A model generated the notes under the pieces. That model worked only from the letters and a program-made list of their open reading frames with translations. It had not been told where the DNA came from and did no database searches. Both the position numbers and the translations under genes were made by a program. Positions 423-8,844 of a stretch of DNA of 8,894 nt are shown here, one piece after another; the first letter of the stretch is position 1, and every line of letters begins with the position of its first letter. The stretch lies in IMG/VR virus record IMGVR_UViG_2663763478_000004; one strand, written 5' to 3'. The DNA is from a virus. Taxonomy: Duplodnaviria > Heunggongvirae > Uroviricota > Caudoviricetes.

Positions 423-1006
423 TTACTCAGATGTAACCTCAGTTGTTGTTTCAGGGCATACCCCAGCTGTTTCGGCATTTCCGCAGCAATGATGCGGTCG
501 CGGGCATCTTCAAATGCCTGTGTCAGCGGTCCGGACATCGGGATTTTCACCACATCAATGGGGTAACGATTTTTGCCGTCAATACGCCGCATCACATGCC
601 AGCGACCATTCGCCAGTTGCTGAATAAACGCATCCCGGAAAAGGTATTTCCCCACTTTCAGTACGCTGCCACGATGACGTGAGTTGCTGCCATGCCGGGA
701 GCGGGCCAGTCTGACCTGTGCGGTACCCAGCTTAATGGCGGGCAGGTTACCCCGGTTAACACGCATGCGGGCATACATTTTTCCTGAGGGGCTGGCTTTA
801 AGCAGCCTGACACGCTCCCTGACCGTTTTCAGGGGAATACCTTTCACCTGGTTATCCCCGGCAACGGTATTCTGCGCAACCTGCCGTGTGGCGACAGAAA
901 CAATCTTTGCCGCCACACGGTTTACCGCCCATGCGCTGGTCTGTGGCACCATGCGGGTATCGAGGCTGTTCAGATTGCGGATGGCATTCTCAAGTCCCTT
1001 CATCAT
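419..1006 (-). CDS. Z: Tail completion protein gpZ
   Basis: 195-aa ORF between FII and U, the size and position of lambda gpZ (192 aa as I recall). Contains GRWHVM.R..GKNRYPIDVVKIPM. Its start overlaps the FII end by 17 nt. Assignment by synteny and length more than by remembered sequence. Confidence 0.8.
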   Translation of the reverse strand: MMKGLENAIRNLNSLDTRMVPQTSAWAVNRVAAKIVSVATRQVAQNTVAGDNQVKGIPLKTVRERVRLLKASPSGKMYARMRVNRGNLPAIKLGTAQVRLARSRHGSNSRHRGSVLKVGKYLFRDAFIQQLANGRWHVMRRIDGKNRYPIDVVKIPMSGPLTQAFEDARDRIIAAEMPKQLGYALKQQLRLHLSK

Positions 1007-1367
1007 ATCGCCTCATTCTGGCATTATTCTGTGGGGCAGGACTGCCCCGCCTTAACCGGATATAACAGCATCCCCCGTCATCCGGAGTAATACGATCCAC
1101 AAAGAAAGAATCATCCCCGATAGTTAACGTATCCTGACGGCGTAACTGCGATATATCTGCCGTTTTCACAAACAGGCACGGTGAGGAATCCTCAAGCCGG
1201 ATCCCCCCGGCAACAAAAGAAATACTTTCGGGATCATCAAAAACCCCTGTCAGGTGTGTCCCCTCAAGTTCTCCGGACGTAATGACGGCGCTGATCCCCA
1301 TATCACGGAGAATGACTTCATTGACACCGGCAAGCGCAGCATCAAACAGATTATCGAAACCGTCCAC
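990..1367 (-). CDS. FII: Head-tail joining protein gpFII
   Basis: 125-aa ORF MDGFDNLFDAALAG...GVFDDPE.IS......R.E.SSP.LFV.T....QLRR.DTLTIG...F.VDR..PDDGG closely parallels lambda gpFII (MADFDNLFDAAIA..., 117 aa). Confidence 0.9.
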   Translation of the reverse strand: MDGFDNLFDAALAGVNEVILRDMGISAVITSGELEGTHLTGVFDDPESISFVAGGIRLEDSSPCLFVKTADISQLRRQDTLTIGDDSFFVDRITPDDGGCCYIRLRRGSPAPQNNARMRRYDEGT

Positions 1368-1378
1368 GACATCTCCTG

Positions 1379-1765
1379 TTACTGCCTTTTTGCCAGACCA
1401 CCTGCCGCCATGCTGGCAGCCACCTCAGCAGAAACACGAAACGACGTTCCCGGTGAAACAAATATCACTGAACCATTACATTTTGTATGCAGTGTCGCCA
1501 GTGCCACCACCGTAACCTGCCCCGTTTCGTCTCCGGTAACAATGCCTGGCTGTTCAGGAACTGACTCGCCTTTATGCGCGGTCGGATCATCTTTCGATGG
1601 TGAGTACGTATCCGGCTCTGCGACCTCCCCCGCATCTCCAAGCTCTTCCTCCAGTTCCGCCACTCGCTGCGCAATATCTGCCGCACTACCGGAGACATCC
1701 GGTTCACGCCCCAGCCTCTCAGCCAGCTCACAAAGACGTTTCAGGTTTTCTTCTTTCGTAGCCAT
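1379..1765 (-). CDS. FI: DNA-packaging / head assembly protein gpFI
   Basis: ORF 1379..1798. The homologous start is the second Met (MATKEENLKRL, ATG at 1765..1763), preceded on the - strand by AGGAG-cgggt-ATG. The C-terminal VTVVALATLHT.....FVSPGTSFRVSAEVAA.M...GLA..Q matches the lambda gpFI C-terminus. Acidic, Pro-rich middle linker as in gpFI. Confidence 0.85.
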   Translation of the reverse strand: MATKEENLKRLCELAERLGREPDVSGSAADIAQRVAELEEELGDAGEVAEPDTYSPSKDDPTAHKGESVPEQPGIVTGDETGQVTVVALATLHTKCNGSVIFVSPGTSFRVSAEVAASMAAGGLAKRQ

Positions 1766-1780
1766 ACCCGCTCCTGATTG

Positions 1781-1810
1781 AATGAAAAACGGGAGCATTT
1801 AGCTCCCGCT
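1781..1810 (-). terminator. Intrinsic-terminator-like hairpin plus U-tract between E and FI
   Basis: - strand reads TAA(E stop)-tccgtg-AGCGGGAGC-taaat-GCTCCCGTT-tttcatt: a 7-bp perfect GC-rich stem (9 bp with one G.U and one A.U), 5-nt loop, then a T5 tract. It lies 6 nt after the E stop and about 20 nt before the FI SD/ATG. Confidence 0.45.
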
Positions 1811-1816
1811 CACGGA

Positions 1817-2845
1817 TTATTTCACCTGCACCACCACAAACTCATCCGGATCCGGCAGCACCATCAGCGGCGCGGACTGCGTCATGGTGAATTCACGCGC
1901 CGGATCACCCACGGTCAGCCAGTGTTTCGGATAACGGGAAGACGCCACCACGCCTTCAGACAATGCCTGCGCATCCTGAATGGCACCGTAGCAACGAATA
2001 CCCTCTGCGGCCGTATTTCCCAGTACCAGTGTGCCGTCCGGCAGATAACGTTTTTCGGTACCGTCCTCTGCCACATAGGACGTTTTTGCCACCACGATTG
2101 CCAGATCACCATAATACCCTTTGAAGGACACCACCGCCCCCAGGTCTTTCACTGCCGTTTCCAGCTGTGAATTTGAGCCACGACGGGTATCCAGTTTTTC
2201 GCGGAACAGCTTAAAGCCATTCAGCAGACGCCAGACCTTACCATCCATAATGGCAATATTGATGGTGCCGGAAGCAAAATCACAGTACGCATCCAGATCA
2301 TGCGTCGGATCAAAGGTATCGCGGTCCTGAGCGCTCCACTCCGTCCCTCCTGCCTGCGTAATGTTATTTCCCACCGACCGGCCAAAATCGACCTCAACAG
2401 TTTCAAACTGCTCTCCTTCCATGGTGTATTTGCCATACAGCACGGCATTCACCGCCTGCATCTCTTCCACCTGGACAATGGCGTGCTCTTCCTGTTTGAG
2501 GTTATCGGTGATGATACGCAGGCGACGGTAAGCCGGGCCGTTCAGCTGGGCCGGATCTTCACCGGGAAGACGCTCCACCGCCTGCTGGTAATTAAATTCG
2601 TGTTTCGGCTTAACGTAGCCCGGGCGCAGTACACGAGTTTCACCGCCACGGTGACGCAACACCTTTCCTTCAACAACCGGGGAGACATAGGCCGCCACCG
2701 GCGTTTTTCCGGTAATTTTGTCCAGCATTACCTCTTCGGTATGGAAATTCACCGTACGGCGGAAAAACAGCTCCAGAAACAGCGCACGAAATTTAACTTT
2801 TTGTTCGGTATAACCGAGTAACTGGCGGGTCGTAAACAATCCCAT
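1817..2845 (-). CDS. E: Major capsid protein gpE
   Basis: 342-aa ORF with long colinear matches to lambda gpE (341 aa): PGYVKPKHE, IVQVEEMQAV.AVL.GKYTM.GE.F..VEVD.GRS..NNITQ.GGTEWS, EKLDTRRGSNS.LETAVKDLG, TGDPAREFTM.QSAPLM.L.DPDEFV.VQ. SD-like AGGA upstream of the ATG. Confidence 0.95.
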   Translation of the reverse strand: MGLFTTRQLLGYTEQKVKFRALFLELFFRRTVNFHTEEVMLDKITGKTPVAAYVSPVVEGKVLRHRGGETRVLRPGYVKPKHEFNYQQAVERLPGEDPAQLNGPAYRRLRIITDNLKQEEHAIVQVEEMQAVNAVLYGKYTMEGEQFETVEVDFGRSVGNNITQAGGTEWSAQDRDTFDPTHDLDAYCDFASGTINIAIMDGKVWRLLNGFKLFREKLDTRRGSNSQLETAVKDLGAVVSFKGYYGDLAIVVAKTSYVAEDGTEKRYLPDGTLVLGNTAAEGIRCYGAIQDAQALSEGVVASSRYPKHWLTVGDPAREFTMTQSAPLMVLPDPDEFVVVQVK

Positions 2846-2902
2846 AAATCAGTTCCTTTCATTCAGAAATCAGTCAGGCTACCGCAGTGACCTGATAAAA
2901 TG

Positions 2903-3250
2903 TTACGGCAGCGCTGCGTGACTCAGGGCACTGCCGGCAAAGGCATTCGCCTTTTTGTGTGTATCCACTCTCTCAGGCCAGTGGATGGCCTCCGTCGCAA
3001 AGGTCCCCGACTTGTAATACGTCAGCACCGTCTCTGTACCTTCAAGCGGCAGTACCAGTATGCCAACCACATGGCCTGCCTTCTGTCCGTCCCAGACCAC
3101 CAGTTTCCCGGTATCCTCATCCAGCATCAGGGGCGTCAGAGCCGGTGTTGCCGAGGAAATCCCGCTGCAGCCTGTGGCGGTATGGGCCGGATCATTACCG
3201 GCAAAAATACGTACTTCCGCACGCTGTTCAGTGATGGTTTTCGTTACCAT
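2903..3250 (-). CDS. D: Head decoration protein gpD
   Basis: 115-aa ORF with DPAHTAT, TPLMLD, KLV.WDG, VGIL, T.YKSGTF, WPE and AFAG motifs colinear with lambda gpD (110 aa). GAGG about 10 nt upstream of the ATG. Confidence 0.95.
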   Translation of the reverse strand: MVTKTITEQRAEVRIFAGNDPAHTATGCSGISSATPALTPLMLDEDTGKLVVWDGQKAGHVVGILVLPLEGTETVLTYYKSGTFATEAIHWPERVDTHKKANAFAGSALSHAALP

Positions 3251-3286
3251 ATTGTAAAAACCTCATATTGATGGTCAGCACTGACT

Positions 3287-3952
3287 TCATGGCATGGCCA
3301 TGAGCATTTTCACGTCCGCATCACCGTCTGCTGACGTCTGTGGCACGCCACCCTGTACCGCTGCCGGTGAATGGTTCGCCATGAAATGTTCAAACATGGC
3401 GGTTGTGGATGCAGAAACCGGTTCTGCCCNNNNNNNNNNNNNNNNNNNNNNNNNNNNNNNNNNNNNNNNNNNNNNNNNNNNNNNNNNNNNNNNNNNNNNN
3501 NNNNNNNNNNNNNNNNNNNNNNNNTTCTCCACGGTCATCCCCGGACAGGCCGCCAGTTTTTCAGCCTGCGCCTCTGCCCCTTTTGCCTCATCCAGGGCCA
3601 TAATCTGATCACGAAGTGAGGGTCCGGCATTCGCCTGCGGTGAAGCAGCCAGAATCGGACGGGCTTTTTCCACCGTCATCTCCGGCATCGCCGCCAGCGT
3701 TGCCGCCAGTTGTTCACGTCCTTTCGCCTCTTCACATGCCATAATGCGATCGGCTTCACTCTGCGCAGATACACCAGATTGTTGCGGTGCCGCCACGGCC
3801 AGAATCGCCCGGGCCTGCTCAACGCTCATACCCTGTTGCCCTGCCAGCATCGTGGCCAGTTGTTCACGTCCTTTCGCTTCCTGACACGTCAGGATCCCCA
3901 TCACTCGCTGGTTCTCCTGCGCGGCAGCCTCCGTTGCAGTTAATTGCGGCAT
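3287..3952 (-). CDS. nu3: Scaffolding protein Nu3, nested in-frame in the 3' part of C (contains the N run)
   Basis: In-frame internal ATG at 3952..3950 (Met302 of the C ORF, ...DTGGT-M-PQLTATEAAAQ...) preceded on the - strand by AGGAGG-cact-ATG. It aligns with the GGRM... region where lambda Nu3 begins inside C. The exact start is an inference. Confidence 0.55.
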   Translation of the reverse strand: MPQLTATEAAAQENQRVMGILTCQEAKGREQLATMLAGQQGMSVEQARAILAVAAPQQSGVSAQSEADRIMACEEAKGREQLAATLAAMPEMTVEKARPILAASPQANAGPSLRDQIMALDEAKGAEAQAEKLAACPGMTVEXXXXXXXXXXXXXXXXXXXXXXXXXXXXXXXXXAEPVSASTTAMFEHFMANHSPAAVQGGVPQTSADGDADVKMLMAMP

Positions 3953-4855
3953 AGTGCCTCCTGTATCGTGTGTGTTCAGCGTCGCAGCCATCACGCTGAT
4001 GGCGTCCGACGCATTGATTAATTCATCCGCCAGTTCGGCCTCAATACCGGACTGACCTTCAAAAACGGCGGCCTCTGTTCCCATAACCGCATCCACAGAT
4101 AAACCGGTATACATCGCCACTTTTTCAGCAAACATCCGGCGCGCCGCATCAATGCGCTGCTGCATGTCCTGGCGAACCTTTGCTGGCAGGGATTCAAACT
4201 GATTGCCATCCACCTTGTGCGATCCGGCGTAAATCAGCGTGATATCCACACCGGCCTGTGCCAGATGACCGGCATAGCTGACATGGCCCATCATCACCCC
4301 AATGGAGCCGATACGGGATGTCTGGGTAACCAGCCGTCGGGAGCAGGCCGATGCCAGTAACATGGCGGCTGAACAGGCCGTGTCATTGCACAGTGCCCAG
4401 ACAGGCTTCAGCTGCCGGAGACGGTAAATCATGTCAGCGCAGTCAAACGCGCCGGTGGCCTGCCCGCCAGAACTGTCAATGTCCAGCAGTACGCCCCGTA
4501 CCTGAGTGTCCGCCATTGCCTGCTGAAGACAGGCGACAATGCCGTCATAGCCAGTCATTCCGGAAAATGGCCGCATGCCACCCAGCCGGTGTACCAGCGT
4601 GCCGGTCACCGGCAGTACAGCAATACCGTTCACCACCCGGTAAACACGGGCAGGTCGTTTGCCTCCGGCCATGTACTCGTCCGTTTCAGCCAGCATCCCG
4701 GGAGCGTCAAGCTGTACCTGCTGTTGCGGTACCGAAAGGCTTGCTGCGCCCATCTCACGCCCGAGCGCGCAAAAGAAAACCCGCGCATAGGCGGGCTCCA
4801 GAAGCAGCGGCTCATTGAATGCCGCAGCGATAATATGTGAAAGATTACGTCTCAC
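3287..4855 (-). CDS. C: Prohead protease / minor capsid protein gpC (S49 SppA-like family), interrupted by a 95-nt N run
   Basis: N-terminal 300 aa colinear with lambda gpC (AFNEPL.LEPAYARVFFCAL, VNGIAVLPV.GTLV, GVLLD.D..GG...GAFDCAD.I.R.R..KPVWAL.ND..CSA..LLASA.SRRLVTQT.R.GSIGVMM, LIY.GSHKVDGN). The C-terminal third carries the scaffold (Nu3) part with tandem repeats. The ORF length of 522 aa is not reliable because 3430..3524 is N. Start overlaps the portal end by 11 nt. Confidence 0.85.
   Translation of the reverse strand: MRRNLSHIIAAAFNEPLLLEPAYARVFFCALGREMGAASLSVPQQQVQLDAPGMLAETDEYMAGGKRPARVYRVVNGIAVLPVTGTLVHRLGGMRPFSGMTGYDGIVACLQQAMADTQVRGVLLDIDSSGGQATGAFDCADMIYRLRQLKPVWALCNDTACSAAMLLASACSRRLVTQTSRIGSIGVMMGHVSYAGHLAQAGVDITLIYAGSHKVDGNQFESLPAKVRQDMQQRIDAARRMFAEKVAMYTGLSVDAVMGTEAAVFEGQSGIEAELADELINASDAISVMAATLNTHDTGGTMPQLTATEAAAQENQRVMGILTCQEAKGREQLATMLAGQQGMSVEQARAILAVAAPQQSGVSAQSEADRIMACEEAKGREQLAATLAAMPEMTVEKARPILAASPQANAGPSLRDQIMALDEAKGAEAQAEKLAACPGMTVEXXXXXXXXXXXXXXXXXXXXXXXXXXXXXXXXXAEPVSASTTAMFEHFMANHSPAAVQGGVPQTSADGDADVKMLMAMP
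3430..3524. other. Run of 95 N (assembly gap or masked sequence)
   Basis: Directly visible in the sequence. It falls within the third copy of the tandem repeat in C/nu3. Confidence 0.98.
3525..3920 (-). repeat. Tandem in-frame repeats (period ~141-150 nt, at least 3 copies) inside the C/nu3 coding sequence, running into the N gap
   Basis: On the + strand gccagttgttcacgtcctttcgc recurs at about 3703 and 3855, and ccac(g/c)gtcatc at 3529 and 3670. At protein level: ...RVMGILTCQEAKGREQLATMLAGQQGMSVEQARAILAVAAPQ / ...RIMACEEAKGREQLAATLAAMPEMTVEKARPILAASPQ / ...QIMALDEAKGAEAQAEKLAACPGMTVE[gap]. Confidence 0.7.
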
Positions 4856-5468
4856 GTGATGTTGTCTCCTCTTCCGGCCTGCGACTCTCCGCTATCTGCT
4901 GCTGATACGCCTGGGCTATCCACACCGGACGTGAGAGTCCGGCTTTTTCGCGCTCTGCGGATTCCCTGACCTGCTGGCGGAAAATGTCCTGATAATCTTC
5001 GCCCATCAGTGCCAGTTCTTTCTCATACGTGCTCAGTCCGGCCTCAATGCGCATCACCGATTCCTGGACCTCCTTGAGCCCGTCAATGGCCATTCTTCCG
5101 GAGCTAATCCACTCTGCCCGTGACCAGGCTGAACGCGCCTGGTAAAAATCAAAACGCGCCCGTGGCGGACGAATAATCCCCCGAAGAAGCGCCTCTTCCA
5201 GCCAGCAGGAAAACATCTGCGTGGCCAGCCGGGCCGCAATAAATTTTCGCCGCCCCATAAAATAGCGCCACGACTCATTGGCGGAGGCGCGGGCACTTGA
5301 GTAACTGACCTTCGAGTAATCACGGGACAACTGTTCGTAGGAAACGCCAAGACCGGCTGCAATATACCGCAGCAGCGCCTGTTCAAGCGCCGAAAATCCA
5401 TTGTCTGAATCCTGCGCTGTCTGCAGGTTCAGCGCATCGCCAGGAAAAAAGGTGCGGAATTTTAACAC
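4845..5468 (-). CDS. B: Portal protein gpB, C-terminal fragment (homology begins about 5450; the annotated Met at 5468 is probably not a real start)
   Basis: PGDALNLQTAQDSDNGFSALEQALLRYIAAGLGVSYEQLSR.Y...YS.ARASANESW.YFMGRRKF.A.R...MF.CWLEEA, SGRMAIDGLKEVQE.VM.IEAGLSTYEKE match the lambda gpB C-terminal half. Confidence 0.8.
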   Translation of the reverse strand: MLKFRTFFPGDALNLQTAQDSDNGFSALEQALLRYIAAGLGVSYEQLSRDYSKVSYSSARASANESWRYFMGRRKFIAARLATQMFSCWLEEALLRGIIRPPRARFDFYQARSAWSRAEWISSGRMAIDGLKEVQESVMRIEAGLSTYEKELALMGEDYQDIFRQQVRESAEREKAGLSRPVWIAQAYQQQIAESRRPEEETTSRET

Positions 5469-6438
5469 CGCCCAGCGTCACGTTATTCGTGTCATACCAG
5501 CGGGTGAACTTCTCCAGAATATTAATAAGCGGATTATCCTGCTGACCTTGCGGTGCCCCCGCGATATATTCAAATGCCTTTTCGGTATCAAGTTCACTTT
5601 CGATTGTGGCTGCATACATCGCCTTCACAATGGCCGACTGAAGCTGCGTGGCCTGCAGGGAGTCCAGCATCTTCATCCGCTCCATTACGCTGTAAAACTG
5701 ATTAGCCCCACGGGTCTGCCCGTCCTCCACCGGCTCAAAAATATGCAGCATGGCCGGACGCCCGGTGGGAAGCTCACGCGGGATCCGCTCCCAGCGTCCG
5801 GCACCAGAGAACGGAAAATCATCCTCACAGATATGGTACGCAATCGCCCGCCCATACCGATCGACCTCAACCCCGGCCCGCAGAAAGTGGTTCCCCATAC
5901 CGTGTCCTGGCGTGTCCACCCGTTTCGGACTCACGGCTTTAAAACGCGTACGGAATAACTGCGTGGTTTCCGTATCCCAGACCGGCTGCACAAAGATTTC
6001 GCCGTTAAAGGCATGCACGCCCACCCCTTCACGGATAAATTCCGTAAACGTGCGTTTCCCTTCCACGTCGATCTCGCCAAACATTCCTTCTGCGTATTCC
6101 GACCAGGCTGCTTCCACCTCCCCGACAAAACTTTTTGCCGTGGTCTCCCGCATCCCCAGCCAACGCCAGTTCAGACGGTAGCTGATAAGAAACATGTGCC
6201 CGACGATATGATCCTTATGCAGGGCCACCGCATTAGCCGCGATACCGTTATTGCGCACCAGATCATCTGCCCGGGCATTCCCCAGACGCAATGCAGGCAA
6301 CAGGGCCGCATCGGCACTCTGCGCCGGTGGTAACCACTCTGCCATTTGCCCGCCAAATCCTGCGCCGCCTCCGTTGTAGCTGAGACTCTCACGAAGCGGA
6401 ACGCCGTTCACATCAATCAGGACAGGCGTTCGTTTCAT
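5383..6438 (-). CDS. B: Portal protein gpB, N-terminal fragment (homologous through about 5446; the last ~20 codons are out-of-frame read-through)
   Basis: GGGAGFGGQ, AALLP..R.GNARADDLVRNNG.AANA, KRTFT..IREGV..HAFNGE.FVQ, IPRELP.GR....H.FEPVEDGQTRGAN.FYSVME.MKMLD.LQ.TQLQSAIVKAMYAATIESELDT all match lambda gpB. ATGA overlap with the W stop. Confidence 0.8.
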   Translation of the reverse strand: MKRTPVLIDVNGVPLRESLSYNGGGAGFGGQMAEWLPPAQSADAALLPALRLGNARADDLVRNNGIAANAVALHKDHIVGHMFLISYRLNWRWLGMRETTAKSFVGEVEAAWSEYAEGMFGEIDVEGKRTFTEFIREGVGVHAFNGEIFVQPVWDTETTQLFRTRFKAVSPKRVDTPGHGMGNHFLRAGVEVDRYGRAIAYHICEDDFPFSGAGRWERIPRELPTGRPAMLHIFEPVEDGQTRGANQFYSVMERMKMLDSLQATQLQSAIVKAMYAATIESELDTEKAFEYIAGAPQGQQDNPLINILEKFTRWYDTNNVTLGGVKIPHLFSWRCAEPADSAGFRQWIFGA

Positions 6439-6638
6439 AACCTCACTCCCAGCGGTCGGCGGCGTCGGGTCGTACCCAGAACCGACTCCGCATCGTTGAT
6501 CGCACGGTTAAGCTCATTCAGGGACGCTGCCGTATATTCGATCCTGCGACCGTCTTTCTGTACCGACACAACCCGTTTACCGGTTAATAAATCAAGGCGC
6601 GCCTGACGCAGCGCCTGCAGTTCAGCGACTGTAACCAT
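6435..6638 (-). CDS. W: Head-tail joining / head completion protein gpW
   Basis: 67-aa ORF MVTVAELQALRQARLDLLTGKRVVSVQKDGRRIEYTAASLNEL...RRRR versus lambda gpW (68 aa) [43 protein letters not shown]...QRRR. GGAGGA Shine-Dalgarno overlaps the A stop; the start immediately follows the A stop. Confidence 0.92.
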   Translation of the reverse strand: MVTVAELQALRQARLDLLTGKRVVSVQKDGRRIEYTAASLNELNRAINDAESVLGTTRRRRPLGVRL

Positions 6639-8549
6639 TCACTCCTCCGGACAGCTTCGCTGCCAGTTCTTCAAGGGTCGGTTGTGCAGTTGCATCCTTG
6701 CGGGATGCAACTGCACAGCCAGATCAAGTTGCCAGCGTTGCACGGACACACGTAATGCCGCATAGGCATACACCAGGCAGTCCAGCGCTTCGTTACGCCG
6801 CTTTTTGTTATCCCACAACAGACGCATCTTTCCTTTTTCCCACTTTTCCACCAGTTCCTCCGCCACCAGTTGTTGTGCCTCTGTCTGCGAAAAAATCTCC
6901 GGATTATCAGGAAAGCGGATGGCATACGATGTGGCCTCATTCACAGGGGTGGGATCGGCCTTCATTCGGGCATAGAGAATTTCTTTTGCGGTATCCGTCC
7001 CCACCTCACACAGATACACACCCCGCTGATTGCGGGTTTTCGGCATGGTGATCACCGGCTTGCCATAGACAGAGGCACCTTTTACCGGCAGTACCCGGAA
7101 AATACCGTGTTTTTTTGACCTCTGATACACGATTTCGCCATCGATCCCCCCGATATCCCAGCAGACACGGGAAATGGTCATTTCGGTACCGTCTGCATGG
7201 CGGTATTTTTTATTGATCGCCGCATCCACACGTAACAGCGTCTCTTCCTCATCAGGACGTCCCATGATGATGATTTTATCCACCAGAAAGGCTTCCTCTC
7301 CCGGAGCCCACCCCCAGACATACATCTCAAAACGGTTTCGCTGCGAGTCAATGCCCGCCGTCAGATAAACCACCCGGACAGGCACCGTTGCCGTGTAAGG
7401 CACAACCTTATCCATCAGTACCTGGTGATCGAGTTTTTCGCCCACGGCCTCTTCCCAGGTCTCGCCCAGCGTGGTGTTCACAAAAGTTTTCACGCCGTTG
7501 GGATCTTTCAGTGCATCCAGCCAGTCACAGACTATCTGTACCCTGGTGGTGAACGGACTGTACGCCGTCCATATATGGAAAGTGATGGAGCGCGGCGGCG
7601 GAATTTCATTACCCGAAGCACTGAAAAACGTCAGACCGTCACACGTCCACATCCCGGTATTGTCACAAATCCAGCGCCCCCCGGTCTGATCAAGTTCAGA
7701 CTGACGGATCACGCAGCCATTATGTTCACACAGGTAATACACCGTTTCCGGTTTACCCTTCTCCCATTTCAGGCCAAACGACGTCGCATCATCGCCAAAC
7801 TTCAGATACTGCTCCTCCCCGCAATGAGGGCAAGGGACATAAAACCGCATGAAATGCGCAGATTCATTCGCAGCTTTTTCAATCTGACAGGAGCCTTTAA
7901 TTTTTGGCGTTGAACCGCGTATGGATTTTGGCCATACCGAACCTTCAATACGTTTATCGCCAAGCAGTGTTGGCGAACCTTCTTTTTCCACATCCGGTTC
8001 AAACGAGGAGAGTTCGTCATAGCAGACCACATCGACAGATTTTTCACGGTAGTTTTTGGCAGCAGCACCACCCAAACACCAGAACCCCACACCAGAGGAA
8101 AAACGCTTCAGTGTGAGCGTATTATCCCGGTGTTTCCGGCCCAGCCAGGGAGAAAGTTTTTTCAGGCAAGGAACATCACGAATTGTTGCTTCCACGTGAG
8201 ACTTCATAAAATCTTCAGCAGCTGAGTCCGTCGGCTGAAAAAGAAGAGTGTTGCGGGATTTGTGCTCAATAAAATACCCGATCACACCAAGCACCATTTT
8301 TGTATAACCAACACGGGCAGATTTAATCAGGTTAACTGTACGAATCTCGTCATTGCCCATGCAGTTCATGATGGCGACCTGAAACTGCAGCGTTTTCCAT
8401 TCCCCCTCACCGTATGACGATTCTTTAGGCAGGTAATAATTTTGATCGGCCCATTCTACAGCCGTCACCGGCAATACCCTGACCAGTGGCTGCAGTGCGA
8501 TAGTGACTGCCACCATCATATTACTCAGTTGTTGTTCTGATATATTCAT
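6639..8549 (-). CDS. A: Terminase large subunit gpA (ATPase/translocase plus cos endonuclease)
   Basis: The ORF runs to 8606, but homology to lambda gpA begins at the internal ATG 8549..8547 (MNISEQQLSNM versus lambda MNISNSQVNRL), giving 636 aa versus 641 in lambda. Long near-identical blocks: TAVEWAD.NYYLPKES, NTLTMKRF..G.GFWCLGG.AAKNYREKSVDV.GYDEL, FLGDKRIEGSVWPKSIRGSTPK, HFMRF.V.CPHCGEEQYLKFGD, FVNTTLGETWE, KGASVYGKPV, KRRNEALDC.VYA.AALR.S..RWQLDL. Confidence 0.95.
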   Translation of the reverse strand: MNISEQQLSNMMVAVTIALQPLVRVLPVTAVEWADQNYYLPKESSYGEGEWKTLQFQVAIMNCMGNDEIRTVNLIKSARVGYTKMVLGVIGYFIEHKSRNTLLFQPTDSAAEDFMKSHVEATIRDVPCLKKLSPWLGRKHRDNTLTLKRFSSGVGFWCLGGAAAKNYREKSVDVVCYDELSSFEPDVEKEGSPTLLGDKRIEGSVWPKSIRGSTPKIKGSCQIEKAANESAHFMRFYVPCPHCGEEQYLKFGDDATSFGLKWEKGKPETVYYLCEHNGCVIRQSELDQTGGRWICDNTGMWTCDGLTFFSASGNEIPPPRSITFHIWTAYSPFTTRVQIVCDWLDALKDPNGVKTFVNTTLGETWEEAVGEKLDHQVLMDKVVPYTATVPVRVVYLTAGIDSQRNRFEMYVWGWAPGEEAFLVDKIIIMGRPDEEETLLRVDAAINKKYRHADGTEMTISRVCWDIGGIDGEIVYQRSKKHGIFRVLPVKGASVYGKPVITMPKTRNQRGVYLCEVGTDTAKEILYARMKADPTPVNEATSYAIRFPDNPEIFSQTEAQQLVAEELVEKWEKGKMRLLWDNKKRRNEALDCLVYAYAALRVSVQRWQLDLAVQLHPARMQLHNRPLKNWQRSCPEE

Positions 8550-8844
8550 CGAGTAAATCCGGTAATTTATCCCCCGCACGCGCGCACTGATTCGCTCCCT
8601 TAGCAATAAGGATTTTCAGATGATCAATATGACGCGGCGTTAAATCCGGGAACTGTCGTTGCATGGACAAAGGAATGGAGTCAAGCGTACTGGATAAAGC
8701 CATCGCCAGCTTACTAAGGGCAAAAATACAAAATCCGGTATCGATAAGATTTCCTTTTGACACCTGATTTTTTAACTGCTGTGCGACAGCCTGTTCTGCG
8801 GTCAGTTCCCATCTGGCAATGAGTAGTTTGAGGTGTACTGGCAA
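8521..8844 (-). CDS. nu1: Terminase small subunit Nu1-like, C-terminal (gpA-interacting) part only; the frame is closed upstream by TAG at 8856..8854 and the N-terminal DNA-binding part is not readable in this frame
   Basis: ...ARWELTAEQAVAQQLKN......IDTGFCIFALSKLA...S.LD..PLSMQRQFPDL..RH.D.LK..I.K...........LPDLLDEYI matches the C-terminal ~100 aa of lambda Nu1 (181 aa). The 3' end overlaps the A start by 29 nt, as in lambda. The first in-frame start-like codon is TTG at 8844..8842, which I do not consider a genuine start. Confidence 0.75.
   Translation of the reverse strand: MPVHLKLLIARWELTAEQAVAQQLKNQVSKGNLIDTGFCIFALSKLAMALSSTLDSIPLSMQRQFPDLTPRHIDHLKILIAKGANQCARAGDKLPDLLDEYIRTTTE

Follow-up and report, generated by a model that had tools for sequence, protein, structure and literature searches.

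How many copies of a repeated module does a phage scaffold gene contain when the available assembly is interrupted by a run of Ns within the repeat, and does the number matter? The question arises from 8,894 nt of DNA of a caudoviricete virus, IMG/VR record IMGVR_UViG_2663763478_000004 (we refer to this whole stretch as the window), in which a run of exactly 95 Ns at 3430..3524 marks an assembly or scaffolding gap. A first-pass annotation, made from the letters alone, had seen three tandem modules at this point, regarded them as an unusual expansion relative to lambda, and suspected that the Ns concealed more of them. On the evidence below, the window is very probably the head block of a phage 21-type lambdoid prophage, with an ancient and normal triplication of the so-called Tri box in the scaffold part of genes 5 and 6. 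The N run would then be an over-long gap across the last 32 nt of the Tri3 box, leaving three boxes and products of 501 and 200 amino acids (aa).

The gene pair and its three Tri boxes

All genes of the window are on the minus strand, and the list of open reading frames (ORFs), tblastn and PHROG profiles identify them as a head and neck operon of lambda type. By tblastn, lambda W, B, C, D and E match the window in that order, and the PHROG assignments of the flanking ORFs agree with the lambda-type order. The genes run from terminase through W, portal, protease/scaffold, decoration protein, major capsid protein, FI and head-tail connector to tail terminator. Specifically, we assigned the C-terminal part of the small terminase (8521-8844), the large terminase (6639-8606), a W-like adaptor (6435-6638), the portal (two ORFs, 5383-6438 and 4845-5468), the S49 protease/scaffold (3287-4855), the decoration protein (2903-3250), the major capsid protein (1817-2845), FI (1379-1798), head closure (990-1367), tail completion (419-1006) and the tail terminator (21-422). 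The protease/scaffold pair thus has the portal gene on one side and the genes for the decoration and major capsid proteins on the other, as in the lambda-type head operon. The portal gene is frameshifted in the window.

The ORF at 3287..4855 (minus strand) is the homologue of phage 21 gene 5 and lambda C, with an S49 (SppA-type) prohead protease domain followed by a scaffold region. It stays in frame through the N run, giving 522 codons in the window; the product is 501 aa in gap-free relatives. Pfam places Peptidase_S49 (PF01343) at aa 146-293 (E = 2.1e-35, 122 bits versus a cut-off of 24.9), and the ORF matches PHROG 53, head maturation protease (E = 8e-226). The SppA structures 3rst and 4kwb are also matched, with E about 4e-15, and in the structure alignment the serine of the window motif ACSAAM is aligned with the serine of AASGGY in SppA, which we take to be the SppA catalytic serine. 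Identity to lambda gpC is about 52-53% over the aligned region.

Nested in the same frame is the scaffold gene proper, the homologue of phage 21 gene 6 and lambda Nu3, at 3287..3952 (minus strand), assigned by the position of CDS '6' in M81255 and of the 'scaffolding protein' CDS in OL657228. Its predicted ATG is at 3950-3952 (MPQLTATEAAA...), the same site as the annotated start in phage 21, and the product is 200 aa in gap-free relatives. A Shine-Dalgarno sequence, AGGAGG, is found at 3957..3962 (minus strand), 4 nt 5' of the ATG (the site reads TACAGGAGGCACTATG), and both M81255 and OL657228 carry an annotated ribosome binding site at the corresponding point. Downstream of the boxes, scaffold and protease end in a common C-terminal tail (3290..3429, minus strand; AEPVSASTTAMFEHFMANHSPAAVQGGVPQTSADGDADVKMLMAMP), in which the homologue alignment shows conserved F-x-x-F-M and L-M-x-M-P motifs. 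One helix is predicted in this tail, and predicted order is otherwise low. We do not regard the CII-binding sites annotated inside gene 6 of OL657228 as meaningful: the window contains two matches, versus a chance expectation of 1.6.

Translation confirmed that the common part of protease and scaffold, in the C-terminal third of the ORF, contains three in-frame tandem modules, all on the minus strand. The first (aa 317-369, 3749-3907) begins RVMGILTCQEAKGREQLATMLAGQQGMSVEQARAILAVAAPQQ, the second (aa 370-416, 3608-3748) begins RIMACEEAKGREQLAATLAAMPEMTVEKARPILAASPQ, and the third (from aa 417, 3527-3607) reads QIMALDEAKGAEAQAEKLAACPGMTVE before passing into the Ns. The gap therefore lies inside the third module and starts just after PGMTVE, as the first-pass annotation had it. 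Because Tandem Repeats Finder and self-BLASTP were negative, we took the significance of the repeat from explicit pairwise alignments with shuffles. Local alignment scores between modules were 82-107, versus shuffle means of about 24-25 (sd about 4.6-4.9), which corresponds to z = 12-17, with 53-61% identity over 36-43 residues. The module measures roughly 40 residues, and successive copies start 150 and 141 nt apart in the DNA. PHROG profiles for scaffolds and for capsid assembly also hit this part of the protein as three distinct stretches.

Compared as DNA, the copies show 56-69% identity, and the longest exact words common to pairs of boxes are 23, 10 and 8 nt, the 23-nt word belonging to boxes 1 and 2. 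Tandem Repeats Finder, run on the window, reported nothing in the Tri-box region because copies at this identity are too diverged for it; self-BLASTP of the protein gave no off-diagonal matches. In other words, these are not the near-identical, readily slipping copies of a VNTR-like array.

A search of phage genomes found phage 21, with about 92% DNA identity over the region. The phage 21 record M81255, 'Bacteriophage 21 head gene operon', annotates three repeat_regions inside gene 6, named 'Tri1 box', 'Tri box' and 'Tri3 box', each noted as 'function unknown; putative'. They translate as QEAKGREQLATMLAGQQGMSVEQARAILAAAAPQ (Tri1), IMVCEEANGREQLAATLAAMPEMTVEKARPILAASPQ (Tri) and IMALDEAKGAEAQAEQLAACPGMTVESARAVLAAGSGK (Tri3), and correspond one-to-one with the three modules. 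Mapped from M81255 onto the minus strand of the window, the Tri1 box is at 3782..3885 (QEAKGREQLATMLAGQQGMSVEQARAILAVAAPQ; module HMM match at aa 320-359) and the second, Tri, box is at 3635..3745 (IMACEEAKGREQLAATLAAMPEMTVEKARPILAASPQ; HMM match at aa 370-408). The Tri3 box, at 3428..3604, is interrupted by the gap, and its readable part at 3527-3604 is IMALDEAKGAEAQAEKLAACPGMTVE. Boxes 1 and 2 are thus complete in the window, and two-thirds of box 3 can be read.

The tandem modules are the already known Tri-box triplication of phage 21 genes 5 and 6, and the view that they were an unusual, undescribed feature has to be given up. The original description of the boxes is that of Smith & Feiss, Gene 126:1 (1993); our literature search of open papers found none on that description or on later work on the boxes. 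The likeness to phage 21 extends to the nested products of 501 and 200 aa, to a predicted internal start preceded by a ribosome binding site, to the number and positions of the boxes and to the neighboring genes. The differences are a few substitutions (box identities are 90-98%) and, in the window, an assembly gap in Tri3 and a prophage origin with the frameshifted portal gene. According to PMC9119081, M81255 is an earlier partial record of OL657228, the complete phage 21 genome. As a discovery the array therefore carries little weight: it is annotated in M81255 and is standard in very common prophages of E. coli, Shigella and Salmonella.

Distribution of the boxes and their copy-number alleles

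Of 5426 complete E. coli genomes, 1870 (about a third) contain a match to the region at 90-95% identity. Every one of the 19 phage genomes matched over the full 200 aa of the scaffold has exactly 600 nt, that is, three boxes. Three-box phages include phage 21, ev017, 4A7, D2, 1W, 3W and the PhiR series, and isolates with a recorded propagation host are among these genomes. Beyond them, three boxes are present in Gifsy-1 of Salmonella and in prophages of Escherichia albertii, Trabulsiella guamensis and Providencia alcalifaciens, at 55-96% identity. The Gifsy-1 gpC homologue, the prohead protease STM2605 (498 aa), has its three boxes in the same order and orthologous to boxes 1, 2 and 3 of the window; it differs in the scaffold part, where identity is about 55%, and in having a different C-terminal tail. 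In each of these relatives, the first box most resembles box 1 of the window (68-79% identity), and the second box likewise has box 2 as its nearest counterpart (59-79%). This position-wise orthology across lineages indicates that the triplication predates them.

A single box is found in lambda, N15, ev243, an Stx1a phage, a Cedecea prophage and alpha- and betaproteobacterial relatives. For lambda, the first-pass annotation had given one copy, and rightly so: gpC of NC_001416 contains the module once, in exactly the sequence that it quoted. Lambda has the same arrangement of an S49 protease with an in-frame nested scaffold (C, 4418-5737; nu3, 5132-5737) between the portal gene and D, and its sole module shares 62% identity with the window's first box. 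It differs in that Nu3 starts 63 codons further upstream than gene 6, within the protease domain, and has a low-complexity linker of roughly 55 residues ahead of the box and a C-terminal tail unlike that of the window.

A search with a box profile, run on 1.84 billion proteins chosen as representatives at 50% identity, gave 465 matches at E <= 0.001. Among the best 150 of these 465, 54 full-length proteins (at least 380 aa) were newly fetched, and 51 of the 54 contain a single box. Since the distant relatives and these full-length representatives have one box, comparison of the sequences indicates that one box is the ancestral and general state and that three boxes are the fixed state of the 21/Gifsy-type lineage.

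Within that lineage, the number of modules does vary among related prophages, as had been anticipated: close homologues at more than 80% protein identity, all from bacterial assemblies, have 2, about 2.6, 3 or 4 boxes. The standard three-box protein is 501 aa. In proteins of 451 aa, the head of box 1 runs on into the tail of box 2 by way of EAKGREQLA, a word common to both boxes, while proteins of 452 aa, an O157:H7 protein among them, show a clean removal of box 2. A 29-aa deletion covering the linker that follows box 1 as well as the beginning of box 2 yields 472 aa, and a 19-aa deletion within box 2 yields 482 aa, a form present on at least 1000 contigs. In the other direction, a duplicated box 2 tail and box 3 head give four boxes in two E. 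coli proteins of 551 aa. One odd protein of 657 aa has a larger duplication and is possibly an assembly chimera. Finally, four boxes are also seen in P0024, a protein from a more remote E. coli lineage; its boxes 2-4 are nearly identical, pointing to an independent and more recent expansion. The 482-aa class, which lacks half of box 2, suggests that not every box need be essential.

These alleles could be read as adaptive, with unequal recombination setting the valency or length of the scaffold at two to four boxes and so altering procapsid assembly. The variety of in-frame alleles with junctions within or between boxes (451, 452, 472, 482 and 551 aa) speaks for such tuning, as does the independent recent expansion in the P0024 lineage. 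However, all 19 phage genomes matched over the full scaffold have exactly three boxes, with no other number found among them, and the variants come from bacterial assemblies in which many such prophages are visibly defective, so that they may represent neutral change or decay. Variants with other than three boxes are, moreover, a small minority of the best matches in 60 sampled complete genomes. We consider adaptive tuning unlikely; because the variants are rare, are absent from the phage genomes and occur where many prophages are defective, neutral or degenerative variation in box number is the more likely reading. As an example of the condition of these prophages, the one in E. coli O121 strain 201805972 has an IS1 insertion and a truncated portal.

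The sequence beneath the N run

To see what the Ns replace, we turned to complete genomes with matching flanks. Within the annotated collection, the complete E. coli genome nearest to the window is that of O121 strain 201805972 (hereafter L001); it is 100% identical to both flanks of the gap across 3280-3960 and has 32 nt in place of the 95 Ns. Two complete genomes of the species-representative collection, E. coli ECMA0423 (CP178302.1) and Shigella flexneri SFBU1023 (CP182556.1), were compared over 5.6 kb; their identity is 100.000% with 3525-6452 and 99.96% with 790-3429. All three genomes have the same 32 nt, TGCCCGGGCTGTACTGGCGGCAGCCTCAGGCA on the coding strand. These encode NARAVLAAASGR, which is the remainder of Tri3 in the gap-free genomes; they finish box 3 and lead directly into the tail (AEPVSAS...), and the gene then has 501 codons. 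We also drew 60 genomes at even intervals from the ranked list of 1875 E. coli records with a match, and 58 of the 60 complete genomes have a span of 887-888 nt, which is the 32-nt state.

The N run is 63 nt longer than the interval in these relatives (95 versus 32), and it is best read as a scaffolding gap of mis-estimated length: three boxes would be the true number, with the missing content taken from near-identical genomes. The gap in the window assembly can accordingly be filled with confidence, giving 32 nt, three boxes and a 501-aa product.

The alternative raised by the first-pass annotation is that the assembler collapsed the array and that the gap conceals one or more further boxes, so that this strain has four or more. 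Four-box alleles do exist, in the two 551-aa E. coli proteins and P0024, and the N run does exceed the 32 nt of the relatives. Yet there are just 32 nt, enough to complete box 3, in the complete genomes whose flanks agree at 100.000% and 99.96%. An extra box would make the gap about 173-182 nt, and the excess of 63 nt here falls well below the 141-150 nt that each box occupies, which makes a hidden box unlikely in itself. No 522-aa allele was found among the best 120 homologues, and no 951-nt span among the 60 sampled genomes. Collapse of the tandem repeat at the gap also fails as a cause: box 3 has just 8-10 exact bases in common with boxes 1 and 2, at most 10 with either, and could not be collapsed onto them. 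Taken together, we regard concealed boxes as very improbable. A true 95-nt sequence carrying a 21-codon insertion is likewise unlikely, that allele being absent from the same 120 homologues and 60 genomes. As for the notion that the repeats are themselves an artefact and that the true gene, like that of lambda, contains a single module, nothing speaks for it but the existence of a gap, and it has next to no chance of being right: it is refuted by the complete genomes with three boxes (1863 in E. coli at 80% coverage or more), by the same boxes in both M81255 and the re-sequenced complete genome OL657228 and, at 55-60% identity, in Salmonella, Trabulsiella and Providencia, and by copies that are just 56-69% identical in DNA.

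With the N run read as a mis-sized gap, there is still the matter of why the assembly broke here. A homologue search with the 200-aa scaffold returned mostly fragments, and we used these to locate contig breaks. Clusters named 'S49 family peptidase, partial', with hundreds of members each, begin or end in box 1 or 2 (for example, P0080, P0071, P0016 and P0013), and the partial cluster P0212 terminates within box 3. Clusters of fragments broken at other points of the gene are small, a comparison that is biased in that the query was the scaffold part. These partial clusters indicate that short-read assemblies often break in the Tri-box region. Each E. coli genome with the region has between one and five copies of it, differing by box-level indels, and branching of the assembly graph between co-resident prophages is for this reason a plausible origin of the gap. 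Annotators of such prophages should expect frequent short-read breakpoints in the Tri-box region.

Predicted fold and role of the boxes

We modeled the scaffold and the single box, in both cases with moderate confidence. In the AlphaFold2 model of the 200-aa scaffold, the helices of the boxes have pLDDT of about 72-77 and the linkers about 50-60, with a pTM of 0.26; the low pTM and the low linker values imply no fixed arrangement between the boxes. A model of a single box has three helices and a pLDDT of 80.6. The prediction for each box is thus a small bundle of three helices, with flexible linkers joining the boxes, and the positions that do not vary (I, EAKGRE, LA..LA, M, A..L) are consistent with a hydrophobic core and a conserved charged loop between helices 1 and 2. 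No family in Pfam or NCBIfam covers the box, and we found no solved relative of it by sequence or by fold.

Lambda Nu3 is called intrinsically disordered in the title of reference 27 of PMC11922011. Such disorder, as worded in that title, fits a beads-on-a-string model, and the predicted bundles may be only marginally stable. The interactions listed for lambda are Nu3-E, Nu3-B, Nu3-C and Nu3-Nu3 (PMC3224144). The boxes occupy a stretch present in both the scaffold (gp6) and the protease (gp5), and Nu3 reportedly makes these contacts with E, B, C and itself; for these reasons, the boxes are most likely protein-binding units that the two proteins have in common.

A possible functional analogy is offered by the scaffolds of P22 and phi29, in which helix-turn-helix coat-binding units bind the N-arm of the capsid protein (PMC11922011, PMC12005531). 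The likeness is that of small helical units in a scaffolding protein. The Tri box differs in being predicted as three-helix, in being repeated and in lying away from the extreme C terminus; in our searches, no sequence or fold match was found between it and the P22-type coat-binding helix-turn-helix.

From these models and this analogy, we infer a binding-module mechanism. The boxes would be independent small three-helix bundles, joined by flexible linkers rich in Pro, Gln and Ala, and would serve as putative binding units in both gp6 and gp5. They would tether the two proteins inside the procapsid by way of the major capsid protein, the portal or both, or they would drive self-association of the scaffold. 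Three boxes would make a multivalent version of the single-box Nu3 of lambda. Once assembly is complete, the scaffold would be cleared by the S49 protease, as it is in lambda.

A further step would be to regard the number of boxes as a functional dial, acting on the valency or reach of the scaffold and the protease tether and thereby on procapsid nucleation, fidelity or size, or as an aid in escaping or exploiting co-resident relatives that share capsid proteins. We think it quite unlikely that box number has such a role. The predicted bundle, together with the natural alleles of two to four boxes, would provide an inexpensive starting point for testing how lambda-type scaffold and protease are retained in the procapsid.

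Copy-number alleles and assembly breaks in the Tri-box region

The Tri boxes, the tandem modules of about 40 residues in the scaffold part of the protease/scaffold protein, vary in copy number in frame. Against the usual three-box length of 501 aa, we found shorter alleles of 451/452 aa (clusters P0182/P0211), 472 aa (P0113) and 482 aa (P0127), and longer ones of 551 aa (P0099/P0100) and 657 aa (P0098), with junctions lying within or between boxes. One allele is a hybrid of box 1 and box 2, joined at a 23-nt word that is common to both boxes. The 482-aa allele, from which half of box 2 is gone, is carried by at least 1000 contigs.

Among the homologues of window positions 3527-3907, eight clusters (P0013, P0016, P0018, P0071, P0079, P0080, P0083 and P0212), each with 99-412 member sequences, consist of 'partial' S49 peptidases whose termini fall inside Tri box 1, 2 or 3. 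Because these clusters stop or start within the boxes, E. coli and Shigella genomes assembled from short reads are very often broken in the Tri-box region. The breaks may be due to co-resident prophages with differing box alleles.

A more distant lineage, at 47% identity, is represented by P0024, a partial E. coli sequence of 346 aa that has four boxes. Boxes 2-4 of this protein are almost identical to each other (QIMALPEAKGREQLAQ...), and this indicates an independent, more recent expansion or homogenisation. The ORF P0041 (270 aa) comes from an 11.3-kb Logan contig; it begins with a DNA methyltransferase-like N terminus (…DLIVCDPPYG…) that leads straight into a three-box scaffold region, without any protease domain. 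Recombination or an error of gene calling may account for it.

Scaffold products of lambda, phage 21 and N15

The annotated scaffold products of lambda (2633-3238 of the locus compared, 201 aa) and phage 21 (locus positions 1588-2190, 200 aa) are nearly equal in length but differ in build. The lambda scaffold starts 63 codons further upstream than that of phage 21 and carries a long linker and one box, whereas the phage 21 scaffold starts just ahead of box 1 and has three boxes. Their similar length, despite this difference, may be a coincidence. In N15, the product annotated as gene 6 (1680-2093) has only 137 aa.

In the annotation of the complete phage 21 genome (OL657228), the scaffold gene contains CII binding sites, and at the equivalent positions the window has two plus-strand matches to TTGYN6TTGY (3700-3713 and 3934-3947). 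We rejected these matches as meaningful CII sites: 1.6 are expected in the window by chance, and two were reached in 102 of 200 shuffles.

The split portal gene and the state of the prophage

The portal gene (4845-6438, minus strand) is divided between two overlapping minus-strand ORFs, at 5383-6438 (351 aa) and 4845-5468 (207 aa), and its frame changes near 5416-5462. In the alignment with lambda gpB, the portal protein, the part ending at residue 338 matches frame -3, and the part that begins at residue 329 matches frame -1. Window positions 3525-6452 are 100% identical in two complete genomes, those of E. coli ECMA0423 (CP178302.1) and Shigella flexneri SFBU1023 (CP182556.1). The frameshift is therefore genuine and did not arise from a mistake in assembling the window.

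Among annotated E. coli genomes, the nearest relative of the window prophage is that of E. coli O121 (NZ_CP119441; locus positions 1006-1928 and 5583-6365). There, an IS1A element is inserted in the head-tail joining gene, the portal gene is without its N terminus, and the large terminase is missing. The window prophage is probably defective, and the O121 copy is a prophage remnant as well.
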